From a virus (Duplodnaviria; Heunggongvirae; Uroviricota; Caudoviricetes): a stretch of DNA of 48,685 bases. A program made the position numbers and the translations under genes. Positions within the stretch are counted from its first letter, which is position 1, and each line of letters begins with the position of its first letter. The notes under the pieces are model-generated. The model was not told where the DNA came from and did not search any database. It worked only from the letters and a program-made list of their open reading frames with translations. Location: IMG/VR virus record IMGVR_UViG_2541047926_000004, positions 1-48,685 of that record; one strand, given 5' to 3'. Positions 11,364 through 14,542 of this stretch are shown one piece after another.

Positions 11364-12061
11364 AAAACATCGCCGCACAGATGGTTAACTTTGACCGTGA
11401 GCAGATGCGCCGGATCGCCAACAACATGCCGGAACAGTACGACGAAAAGCCGCAGGTACAACAGGTAGCGCAGATCATCAATGGTGTGTTCAGCCAGTTA
11501 CTGGCAACTTTCCCGGCGAGCCTGGCTAACCGGGACCAGAACGAACTGAACGAAATCCGCCGCCAGTGGGTTCTGGCTTTCCGGGAAAACGGGATCACCA
11601 CGATGGAACAGGTTAACGCAGGAATGCGCGTAGCCCGTCGGCAGAATCGACCATTCCTGCCATCACCCGGGCAGTTTGTTGCCTGGTGCCGGGAAGAAGC
11701 ATCCGTTACCGCCGGGCTGCCAAACGCCAGCGAGCTGGTTGATATGGTTTACGAGTATTGCCGGAAACGTGGCCTGTATCCGGATTCAGAGTCTTATCCG
11801 TGGAAATCAAACGCGCACTACTGGCTGGTTACCAACCTGTATCAGAACATGCGGGCCAATGCGCTGACTGATGCGGAATTACGGCGCAAGGCTGCCGATG
11901 AACTGGCCTGTATGACAGCGCGAATTAACCGTGGTGAGGCGATACCTGAACCAGTAAAACAACTTCCTGTTATGGGCGGGAGACCGCTTAATCGTGTTCA
12001 GGCTCTGGCGAAGATCGCAGAAATCAAAGCGAAGTTTGGGCTGAAAGGAGCAAGTGTATGA
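11360..12061 (+). CDS. P: replication protein P (helicase loader)
   Basis: 233 aa near-identical to lambda P as recalled. Confidence 0.95.
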   Translation: MKNIAAQMVNFDREQMRRIANNMPEQYDEKPQVQQVAQIINGVFSQLLATFPASLANRDQNELNEIRRQWVLAFRENGITTMEQVNAGMRVARRQNRPFLPSPGQFVAWCREEASVTAGLPNASELVDMVYEYCRKRGLYPDSESYPWKSNAHYWLVTNLYQNMRANALTDAELRRKAADELACMTARINRGEAIPEPVKQLPVMGGRPLNRVQALAKIAEIKAKFGLKGASV

Positions 12062-12231
12062 CGGGCAAAGAGGCAATTATTCATTATCTGGAGACGCACA
12101 AGAGCTTCTGTGCGCCGGACGTTGCTGTGACAACAGGTGTGACATTAACCAGCATAAATCAGGCTGCGGCAAAAATGGCGCGGGCAGGAATCCTGGTCAT
12201 TGATGGTAAGGTCTGGCGAACGTTTGTTTAA
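12058..12231 (+). CDS. ren: Ren-like protein (short)
   Basis: 57 aa MTGKEAIIHYLETHKSFCAPDVAVTTG... matches lambda Ren N-terminus; ATGA overlap with P; below the ORF-track size cut-off. Confidence 0.7.
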   Translation: MTGKEAIIHYLETHKSFCAPDVAVTTGVTLTSINQAAAKMARAGILVIDGKVWRTFV

Positions 12232-12377
12232 CGGTTAGCTACTCAGGATGATAGGGCGGGGCAAGTGAGTATGAAGCGGATTTTAAGGAATGCCATCAGA
12301 GTTTGGAAATAAAGTGGGTTTTCTAGTGGCAAGAGACTTGATAATATTTAGTTCTTTGAATCCAAGGAGATAGGGTT

Positions 12378-12872
12378 ATGAGAAAATTTATTTTAGCCTT
12401 TGTTATAAGTGCCTCGTTTACAGCAAATGCTGGTGTAGAGAAGTTAGGGCCGTGGATAACAAAGTCTGAGATAAATAAAATGACTGACCAGACTGACTTT
12501 GTGGCTCTTAATTTATCACCAGATTCATATAACAAAGCAGGTACTGATCGTGCAACTTCACTGGTGTTGCGTTGTAGTGATAACAAAACAGATGCCTATT
12601 TATCATTCAATGATTATATGGGTTCGGACAACCCAAGAATTACAGTGCGGTTAGATGGCGGAAAGCCGGTCAAGAGTGTTTGGGGAGGTGGGGAAGGCGG
12701 TGATTCTGCATTTGCTCCACAACCAATACAATTTATAAAGACCTTGGCTAAGCATAAAAAAGCTATTTTTGGGTTTGAACCTTATGGATCAACTATGCAA
12801 GTAGTTGAGTTTGACTTGTCTGAGATTGATAAGGTTGTGGAAAAAATTTCACAGTCTTGCAATTGGAAATGA
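12378..12872 (+). CDS. hypothetical exported protein (signal peptide)
   Basis: 164 aa; N-terminal MRKFILAFVISASFTANA signal-like; AAGGAGA RBS; followed by its own terminator. Confidence 0.55.
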   Translation: MRKFILAFVISASFTANAGVEKLGPWITKSEINKMTDQTDFVALNLSPDSYNKAGTDRATSLVLRCSDNKTDAYLSFNDYMGSDNPRITVRLDGGKPVKSVWGGGEGGDSAFAPQPIQFIKTLAKHKKAIFGFEPYGSTMQVVEFDLSEIDKVVEKISQSCNWK

Positions 12873-12889
12873 CAAAAAAATTTCATATG

Positions 12890-12916
12890 AACCCAGTTGG
12901 CGCTGGGTTTTTTATT
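12890..12916 (+). terminator. rho-independent terminator
   Basis: Hairpin AACCCAGTTGGCGCTGGGTT followed by TTTTTATTT. Confidence 0.5.
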
Positions 12917-13509
12917 TCAGTAGCCAATAATGCATTCAAAATCTCTTACTTGAGAAACGGCCTATTTGAGATTTCAGTCGTGGCAGGATGATCAGTTGAT
13001 TCGAGTATTGACGCATTTGCGTTCGGAGCGATTACAGTAGATTGTAAATAATAATGAGAAACACATAGCCACATAGCCACCCCGTGGTATTGAAACCATA
13101 TAATGTTGGATTTGAAAACAGATCTTTTCCCATGTATTAATAACTACATCCCCGCGAGTAATTCAAAAAGGAGGGCCCAATTTTGTCCGAGTTTTTGTAT
13201 TCCCCCGCATGCCGCTGCGGAGCACTACATCTGAGTGTCTGACTAGGGGATAAAATTAGACTGGATAGTGAGAAGAAAGTGGCGCGCTAGGCTGTGCCGA
13301 GTGCTACCAGTACACCTTGGGGGTGTGCAGCTTTCGCCGAGACTGTAGTGGGTATCGGTTAATGCACGAAAAACCGAGAGGTCAGACAACCAATTTGCCG
13401 TAGGATTGTTTCCGGTGCGATACCGGTCTACTAACTGAAAGCAATGCGAAAAAGCATAAACTCGGTCCTTCAGTCGCCCTACACACTATTTACTAAGAAG
13501 GGCTGAAGC

Positions 13510-13710
13510 ATGGATACAATTATTACATGGATGGGAGATCGTCTGTTGGGGGGGACACAAAAATCCGATCTGCGGCAGATGGCGATCACTGGATTAACTT
13601 CCGCGATTTGTTCAACAATTTTGTACACTGAAAAATTAAAACATGGTGAGCCTATTAACCCAAACGAAGAAGAAAAACTTTATAGGCTTTGGTATGAAGG
13701 AAACGCTTGA
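13510..13710 (+). CDS. hypothetical small protein
   Basis: 66-aa ORF with GAAGGG upstream; no motif. Confidence 0.3.
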   Translation: MDTIITWMGDRLLGGTQKSDLRQMAITGLTSAICSTILYTEKLKHGEPINPNEEEKLYRLWYEGNA

Positions 13711-13916
13711 AAGAATAAAGCACAATTAAAACCTTTGATTTGCGATAATCAACTTGCCATAATTAAGTAATCGGAGCCTGAACAACTCCGGTGACTTCTG
13801 CGCTAAACGGGGACGTTTATGCGCACATACAATCCAACCTCTCTTCTCCATTCACAGATGCAGAAATGCACCTGCGATATTTTGCATCCAGCGTTTGATC
13901 TCTGCGGAGGTGAAGC

Positions 13917-14372
13917 GTGAACCTCCCACAAGATGGTATCAAATTGCATCGCGGTAACTTCACCGCTATCGGTCGGCAGATCCAGCCTTATCTGGAGGAC
14001 GGCAAATGCTTTCGTATGGTGCTTAAACCGTGGCGCGAGAGACGCAGTCTTTCCCAGAATGCACTCAGCCACATGTGGTACAGCGAAATCAGTGAATACC
14101 TCATCAGCAGGGGTAAAACGTTCGCCACTCCAGCTTGGGTAAAAGATGCTCTCAAACACACTTATCTCGGTTATGAAACCAAAGAACTGGTTGATGTCGT
14201 AACCGGTGAAATCACCACCATTCAGTCATTACGTCATACCTCCAATCTTGATACCGGAGAGATGTATGTCTTCCTGTGTAAGGTTGAAGCCTGGGCGATG
14301 AATATTGGCTGCCACCTGACTATTCCGCAGAGCTGCGAGTTCCAGCTGCTCCGCGACAAGCAGGAGGCGTAA
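13917..14372 (+). CDS. ninB: NinB-like recombination protein
   Basis: GTG start with GGAGG upstream; [16 protein letters not shown] resembles lambda NinB core. Confidence 0.6.
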
Positions 14373-14542
14373 TGGCTACACCGCTTATTCGTGTCATGAA
14401 CGGACACATCTACAGAGTATCAAATCGTCGTAAGCGTAAACCTGAGCTGAAGCCATCCGAAATACCAACACTGCTAGGATATACCGCCAGCCTGGTTGAT
14501 AAAAAATGGTTGCGACTGGCAGCAAGGAGGAATCATGGCTGA
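14372..14542 (+). CDS. NinE-like small protein
   Basis: 56 aa; YTASLVDKKWLRLAARR resembles lambda NinE C-terminus; not in ORF track (short). Confidence 0.45.
   Translation: MATPLIRVMNGHIYRVSNRRKRKPELKPSEIPTLLGYTASLVDKKWLRLAARRNHG

Follow-up and report, generated by a model that had tools for sequence, protein, structure and literature searches.

A candidate family of structured non-coding RNA in prophages of the Escherichia coli group

The put RNAs of phage HK022 act in cis in processive antitermination; they are about 65–70 nt long, have two stem-loops and are located directly after pL and pR. In type III toxin-antitoxin systems (ToxIN, CptIN, TenpIN) the antitoxin is an RNA made of tandem direct repeats, and the gene of the endoribonuclease toxin lies 3' of it. 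The large "ornate" bacterial and phage RNAs GOLLD and ROOL (and OLE) are often borne by phages or prophages (PMC12286853). We have analysed a 48,685-nt stretch of viral DNA, IMG/VR record IMGVR_UViG_2541047926_000004 (the window, to whose full length all coordinates refer, the element being numbered on the + strand), in which the gap at 12873–13509 holds a conserved element at 13148–13478. Our results suggest, with a probability of roughly 0.6, that this element is an autonomous gene for a structured non-coding RNA (ncRNA) of about 331 nt, a putative "RNA moron" whose family lies outside Rfam 15. A literature search by sequence strings and by topic retrieved nothing on this element.

The element and the mean pairwise identity between its sequence types are as follows:

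13148–13478, + strand: core of the conserved element, predicted to be a structured RNA (331 nt, sharp conservation edges, pairing kept)
Beyond −60: identity 0.25–0.30
−60 to −1: identity 0.54–0.65
Inside the element: identity 0.7–0.98
Directly past the last conserved base: identity 0.32

The first lead came from Klebsiella phage Kp4856-1, where 78% identity to the window is confined to 13148–13476, other genes flank the element on both sides and an intrinsic terminator stands directly 3' of the conserved part. Copies were collected with an invariant 18-mer (13376–13393) as anchor; it returned 64 loci from IMG/VR, and metagenome contigs contributed 25 family members. With five more anchors or gapped patterns no further true member was gained (L052, L112 and L138–L153 are chance matches). 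With the 18-mer the GTDB representative genomes yielded no member, only chance matches in unrelated phyla, and the plasmid collection contained no copy of the element. Tracking of the downstream proteins led to extra copies in Obesumbacterium proteus, Enterobacter bugandensis and Kosakonia. In total, IMG/VR, metagenomes and phage genomes gave 85 full copies with 31 unique cores (core identity 72–100%). The unique cores group into about 8–10 sequence types, which are 72–85% identical to one another and 329–331 nt long. Hosts of the element are lambdoid (pro)phages of Escherichia, Klebsiella, Enterobacter, Kosakonia and Obesumbacterium. Among sequenced phages it occurs in four only, including IdasGreatGrand, Turner and Kp4856-1, which are viable. 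Of 5426 complete E. coli genomes, 159 contain it, in a single copy in each, as in the window, and none of the 159 has it annotated. As far as could be searched, the family appears to be confined to lambdoid (pro)phages of Enterobacterales.

The comparison of loci shows a discrete unit with sharp ends, which by this measure moves independently of its neighbours. Within E. coli, segregating sites in the window-type lineage number 0.036 per nt for the RNA as compared to 0.10 for the adjacent open reading frame (ORF), a lower polymorphism that indicates purifying selection. One IMG/VR copy of the window type (L060, about 3067–3400) has its last 25 nt or so swapped for unrelated sequence, which means that decayed or recombinant copies exist.

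The initial structure model was made with RNAalifold from 20 sequences and had 86 pairs, 13 of them with compensatory changes. During refinement the variable arm was reworked and two long-range pairings were added from an all-against-all scan of columns; the counts that follow were made on 23 sequences. The final model has 103 pairs in 18 helices and 97.2% of its cells are paired across the relatives; the preliminary description of this gap had made its proposal depend on conservation of stem-loops. When the partners were slid by 1–3 columns, 33–45% of the cells were paired. Changes on both sides of a pair are found at 23 pairs (155 cells) in the model as compared to 2–6 pairs (10–18 cells) in the slid controls, and the observed pairing and compensatory values were matched by none of 500 shuffles. 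The five best-supported helices and the strands of the long-range contacts are:

13275–13280 with 13330–13335, + strand: helix, three covarying pairs
13281–13286 with 13302–13308, + strand: helix, three covarying pairs
13336–13344 with 13351–13359, + strand: helix, six covarying pairs, one position having as many as six pair types
13373–13378 with 13461–13466, + strand: helix with compensatory changes
13403–13436, + strand: variable peripheral arm with compensatory changes at four pairs (e.g. CG/GC, AU/CG/UA), including the hairpin CCGGU-GCGAU-ACCGG (13412–13426)
13223–13228, + strand: loop L5 (CACUAC), 5' partner of a kissing loop, paired with 13345–13350 in 100% of cells
13345–13350, + strand: loop L11 (GUAGUG), 3' partner of the kissing loop, pairs with L5
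13238–13244, + strand: 5' strand of the long-range pairing PK2 (UCUGACU), complementary to 13380–13386 in 23 of 23 sequences, with C or U opposite G
13380–13386, + strand: 3' strand of PK2 (GGUCAGA), within the invariant block GAGAGGUCAGACAACCAA

The kissing loop between L5 and L11 comprises 6 bp and has two covarying positions (AU/GC and AU/UA/CG) in the 23 sequences. It occurs in three versions: CACUAC/GUAGUG, CGCAAC/GUUGCG and CACCAC/GUGGUG. PK2, a long-range pairing of 7–8 bp, is the sole inverted repeat of at least 8 nt in the interval (13236–13243/13381–13388). In the three-domain fold of the model, long-range helices close the domains and the 6-bp kissing loop locks the fold; judged from the model, this contact could form within one molecule or between molecules. 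Regarding two hairpins that had been pointed out earlier, CCGGT-GCGAT-ACCGG at 13412–13426 is real and belongs to the variable arm with its compensatory changes. The other one, CCGCA/TGCGG, exists at 13205–13209/13216–13220, but 16 of 20 relatives have lost its middle pair.

Among the cells of the model G:U is found 230 times and A:C 8 times. This excess of G:U indicates that the folding strand is the + strand and makes RNA the natural reading. A covariance-model search, suggested beforehand as a check, matched no known ncRNA family: permissive cmscan (E ≤ 10) with the 4227 models of Rfam 15 on 12000–14500 and 13100–13520 gave no match in the element, and on the Klebsiella copy only terminator look-alikes of 11–25 bits were obtained, as compared to thresholds of 39–70. 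Comparative structure evidence for a candidate new family of structured ncRNA in E. coli-group prophages is strong, and we regard it as very probable that the element is a structured RNA. Tandem Repeats Finder (TRF) detected no repeat inside 13148–13478. A CsrB-like sponge was considered and dropped; there are only 5–6 GGA motifs, mostly in stems.

Conserved signals are also found directly upstream of the element:

13093–13141, + strand: conserved promoter-like block (conserved hexamers at fixed spacing, identity 0.54–0.65 over −60 to −1)
13093–13109, + strand: A-tract and imperfect palindrome similar to CCATAT..TATGG, conserved across RNA types, directly 5' of the −35-like hexamer
13112–13117, + strand: −35-like TTGAAA, followed by a 17-nt spacer of variable sequence
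13135–13141, + strand: −10-like TATTAAT, at fixed spacing to the −35-like hexamer in all types

All types have in common TTGAA(A/T), a spacer of free sequence with the fixed length of 17 nt, and TGT(T/A)TAAT. The start predicted from this block, about 7 nt past the −10-like hexamer, coincides with the first conserved base, 13148. The A-tract with the palindrome might serve as an UP element or as the operator of a regulator. At the other end, canonical terminators are located 4–8 nt 3' of the core in 16 of the 22 loci examined. They consist of a GC stem of 7–11 bp, a 4-nt loop and 5–8 U (−13 to −22 kcal/mol), and their sequence varies between loci without overlap with the conserved or closing helices. 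The window type and four other RNA types have no terminator, and in these the 118-aa gene begins after 30–33 nt. In the window type, a hairpin that would hide the Shine-Dalgarno sequence of the 66/118-aa ORF was considered as well and dropped, since it is weaker in the most frequent subtype and other types do not have it.

The genes located 3' of the RNA are of at least six different kinds, and several different genes are found 5' of it. We refer to the downstream genes as cargo:

13510–13710, + strand: truncated cargo gene (66 aa), a derivative of the 118-aa gene by frameshifting deletion, with no terminator between it and the RNA
Relatives: cargo gene for a protein of 178–191 aa whose two ends, as read from its sequence, each have a hydrophobic stretch that probably spans the membrane
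Klebsiella (L003, 3385–3936): cargo gene for a 183-aa protein (phrog_27260) with an RHNLLH motif of the HEPN Rx4-6H type
Relatives: cargo genes for a 177-aa protein and, separately, a 95-aa protein

In nearly all loci a same-strand ORF lies within 30–52 nt of the core or its terminator. This leaves no room for a promoter of its own, so the downstream genes would be expressed by read-through, and they appear to use the promoter of the RNA. In L009 the RNA has no cargo and is directly followed by a regular nin gene, DUF1367. Both common cargo families occur elsewhere in prophages with no copy of the RNA beside them, and the RNA is therefore an independent module. Searches of the cargo proteins against Pfam and PADLOC gave no family match, and those against PHROG matched only groups of unknown function. 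The 118-aa protein (phrog_12412) is predicted to be a four-helix bundle and has no significant PDB neighbour. When compared to the intact 118-aa ORF of IdasGreatGrand, the 66-aa ORF of the window lacks about 156 bp between direct repeats TTGGTATGAAG; this deletion shifts the frame and removed the C-terminal half of the protein. The 66-aa ORF is a pseudogene that RefSeq does not annotate. Its truncation is widespread among assemblies of E. coli, and the contigs found by this ORF are long genomic ones only. The window has an intact RNA with no terminator and a broken downstream gene. In Kosakonia (L122, 1–1319), genes of AAA_21 and RloB stand just 5' of the RNA. These are of a kind known from anti-phage defence systems. 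Together with the RHNLLH protein, these neighbours fit a hot spot of defence or moron genes.

Taken together, we propose that the RNA moron is located in the ren–ninB insertion hot spot and would be transcribed autonomously. Transcription would start about 7 nt after the TTGAAA-N17-TATTAAT block and in most relatives end at the intrinsic terminator 4–8 nt past the last conserved base; cargo genes would be expressed by read-through from the same promoter. It is rather likely, given these flanking signals, that the element is its own transcription unit. To the proposition that the RNA acts in trans we would give somewhat less than even odds.

Several points weigh against the autonomous RNA gene. 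Folding of single sequences, of either strand, is no better than that of shuffles (z = −0.47), so the signal for structure comes only from the comparison with relatives, where it is strong. PK2 is almost invariant, and its support is therefore complementarity and not covariation. The sequences are related and mosaic, of only about 8–10 types, and the 155 cells with compensatory changes overcount independent events. A strict sigma-70 scan (at least 9 of 12 consensus matches, A at −11, T at −7) did not call the promoter-like block because the −10-like hexamer has no A at −11. We infer the start site, the 3' end and the expression of the RNA in lysogens from sequence. In the five RNA types that have no terminator and an ORF after 30–33 nt, the element would be a 5' leader and not a free RNA. 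This last point leads to the main rival explanation, namely that the element is a cis-acting leader through which the RNA controls the downstream gene, either by riboswitch-like sensing of a ligand or protein or by put-like resistance to terminators. The order of promoter, complex RNA, terminator and gene is the classic layout of an attenuator, the close same-strand ORF with no room for its own promoter is found in nearly all loci, and five RNA types are joined to the 118-aa gene without a terminator. However, the terminators are variable and stand 4–8 nt past the core, clear of the closing helices, and inspection by eye and minimum-free-energy folds revealed no conserved alternative pairing of riboswitch type and no conserved anti-terminator. 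Further points against the leader are that the same RNA precedes at least six unrelated genes, that L009 has it without cargo and the window has it ahead of a dead gene, and that cargo genes function elsewhere without it. Moreover, 331 nt and 18 helices far exceed put or the known enterobacterial riboswitches. We consider a cis-acting leader improbable on balance, and the autonomous gene better suited to these data.

The remaining explanations, coding, a site in DNA and debris, are disfavoured. Conservation could reflect one or more small proteins. Such a protein is suggested by a 19-codon ORF that begins with TTG at 13183 behind a perfect AAGGAGG Shine-Dalgarno sequence; AAGGAGG, TTG, frame and stop are kept in most types, even where 2 nt are deleted between AAGGAGG and TTG. 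A second candidate ORF, of 61 aa, belongs to the non-E. coli types, and 8 of the 20 aligned sequences keep it open. Both are nevertheless interrupted in some lineages, the shorter by a stop codon inside it in L005 and its lineage (at least eight loci) and the longer by TAG in the window type and the L027, L055 and L111 types, and no reading frame on either strand was found open in all types. Substitutions have no 3-nt periodicity, with variable columns at 42, 50 and 47 in the three codon phases (p = 0.70). Neither ORF accounts for compensatory changes and a kissing loop over 331 nt, and coding is a very unlikely cause of the conservation. A DNA-level element without any RNA (a single-strand origin, a primosome assembly site, a recombination site or a protein-binding site) would fit the position just 3' of the replication genes O and P, and single-stranded DNA signals use hairpins too, but duplex sites would carry no strand bias such as that of G:U over A:C (230 and 8); RNA fits this bias best, although single-stranded DNA of the + strand would be compatible with it. 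The fixed orientation, co-directional with the early-right operon, and the promoter-like block 5' and intrinsic terminator 3' point the same way, and we know of no need of lambdoid phages for a DNA site at this position, which makes such a site highly improbable. Equally hard to believe is that the element is non-functional gene debris, or a set of chance hairpins hitchhiking with its neighbours. Debris does fill the left side of the interval, the prophage that carries the element is defective and the single-sequence fold is unremarkable; against this stand sharp ends that are independent of both neighbours, pairing maintained by compensatory change, polymorphism about three times lower than in the adjacent ORF, and the presence of the element in the viable phages IdasGreatGrand, Turner and Kp4856-1.

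If the element is an autonomous RNA gene, it may, speculatively, act by its folded shape and bind a host or phage protein or a small ligand, and would not be a short antisense regulator. Only tentatively do we suggest that it is the founding member of a class of large tertiary-structured RNAs, a stand-alone RNA moron made by lysogens that acts purely via its fold. Under this suggestion its possible roles include a decoy or sensor for a protein of the host or of an invading phage at a defence hot spot, or, by analogy, a self-assembling particle of the ROOL/GOLLD kind.

Regarding the annotation of the element, gene callers leave it blank or place spurious short coding sequences there. Short coding sequences for a "hypothetical protein" have been called on the RNA (L002, 3144–3275 and 3325–3444); as no frame stays open throughout the types, those placed on it in IdasGreatGrand are best taken to be spurious. 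On the opposite strand, a frame of 110–112 codons spans the whole element in L006, L009, L036, L037, L048, L049 and L085 and is closed in the other aligned sequences.

The element is located in a lambdoid prophage of E. coli at tRNA-Thr (1369–22300), which is defective: its ren carries a frameshift, an IS1 stands after the lysis genes, and it has neither head nor tail genes. In the same prophage a gene of a Ser/Thr kinase adjoins the repressor. The stretch 12873–13509 is 100% identical to NZ_CP080085 and eight further complete genomes. The only match of a tRNA/tmRNA scan (ARAGORN) is the host tRNA-Thr at 1369–1444. The gene order around the gap and the features outside the element are:

Upstream of the gap: O, P, frameshifted ren, gene of a VasI/TagO-like exported protein (12378–12872)
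Downstream of the gap: ylcH (13820–13921), ninB/ybcN, ninE, ybcO, rusA, ylcG, Q
12889–12918, + strand: intrinsic terminator of the VasI/TagO-like gene (terminator scan; 9-bp stem at 12889–12910, then a T tract)
12952–13040, + strand: 3' remnant of a roi-like antirepressor gene (Bro-N and P22_AR_C), 94% DNA identity from 12952 on
13062–13080, strand not applicable: 8-bp tandem duplication, CACATAGC ×2.4 (TRF and repeat search), lineage-specific

The gap is a composite: its left 40% or so consists of a terminator, a gene remnant and a duplication, and about half of it is the conserved RNA element. The roi-like gene is intact in IdasGreatGrand (a 202-aa ORF with Pfam Bro-N and P22_AR_C) and also in Turner; in the window only the last 24 codons survive, as the 24-aa ORF 12966–13040, which is the C-terminus of the 202-aa ORF. 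IdasGreatGrand has one copy only of the CACATAGC unit and lacks the duplication. Further downstream, a hairpin CGGAG-CCUGAACAA-CUCCG is located at 13783–13801, just 5' of ylcH/ninB. Its 9-nt loop CCUGAACAA recurs in relatives with stems that differ and are nevertheless complementary (e.g. GUCAG...CUGAC), at times twice per locus (L009 at about 2240, L114 at about 3403, L100 at 5047 and 6287, L111 at 1867 and 3100). This hairpin could be a boxB/nut-like signal or an element of module boundaries.

The preliminary description identified a real annotation hole and the right category, for reasons that were mostly wrong. No ORF of 60 aa or more is present on either strand of 12873–13509, as it had said (the longest have 48 and 44 aa). 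The hole is in fact larger, as no record compared has a RefSeq feature within 12873–13819. The gap had been placed between two moron-like genes; the "next ORF" on its downstream side is the truncated pseudogene at 13510–13710. Three of the four features that had been cited, the repeat, the TATAAT box and the first hairpin, are outside the conserved element or not conserved. A tandem repeat exists, as the 8-nt unit listed above and not as a 9-mer at 13066–13083, and it lies outside the element. TATAAT is present at 13099–13104 instead of 13102–13107; it is not conserved in relatives and is 5' of the conserved −35-like hexamer, contrary to what a −10 element would require. As for the suggested small RNA or regulatory leader, conservation, compensatory changes, strand asymmetry and the promoter-like and terminator signals support an ncRNA, which at about 331 nt with tertiary pairings is not small and occupies only 13148–13478 of the gap.

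To our knowledge, E. coli and its prophages are the genomes most heavily mined for ncRNA. Yet a 331-nt element with covariation-supported helices and a kissing loop has stayed unannotated there (159 of 5426 E. coli genomes) and has no Rfam match. If expressed, it would be a genetically tractable addition to a very short list of large orphan structured phage RNAs, in a host in which knock-outs, pull-downs and cryo-electron microscopy are routine. As it stands in the ren–ninB hot spot, in front of exchangeable cargo genes, it is also a candidate for a regulator of, or a partner in, accessory or defence functions of prophages.

In comparison with the known systems, the element has in common with HK022 put that it is an RNA of the lambdoid early operon with a promoter 5' and a terminator 3', put acting without a dedicated phage protein. 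It differs from put by its 331 nt, about 18 helices and a promoter-like block of its own, and by its position after P and ren, about 3.6 kb from the cro-side promoter region. The type III toxin-antitoxin systems have a similar arrangement of promoter, ncRNA, terminator and promoterless protein gene on a mobile element or in a defence hot spot, but TRF finds no tandem repeats in the RNA of the element, and its downstream proteins are mutually unrelated, match no toxin in Pfam or PADLOC and also occur without the RNA. DicF, IsrK, StxS and AgvB/AsxR are likewise ncRNAs of enterobacterial lambdoid prophages, some of them expressed in lysogens (see e.g. PMC7547250). They are Hfq-binding, base-pairing regulators of 50–100 nt, whereas the element has 331 nt and a predicted compact tertiary fold. 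Judged by these features, the element falls outside the put RNAs, the type III antitoxins and the prophage small RNAs known so far. With GOLLD, ROOL and OLE the element shares the character of a large, intricate, phage-borne ncRNA with kissing-loop or pseudoknot contacts and no associated protein gene. It does not match their Rfam models (E ≤ 10), is 331 nt long as compared to about 580–800 nt, and resides in the ren–ninB hot spot of Enterobacterales lambdoid phages, unlike GOLLD and ROOL, which are found next to tRNA clusters. Closest to it by kind are the orphan large phage RNAs GOLLD and ROOL, from which the element is set apart by its sequence, size and context.

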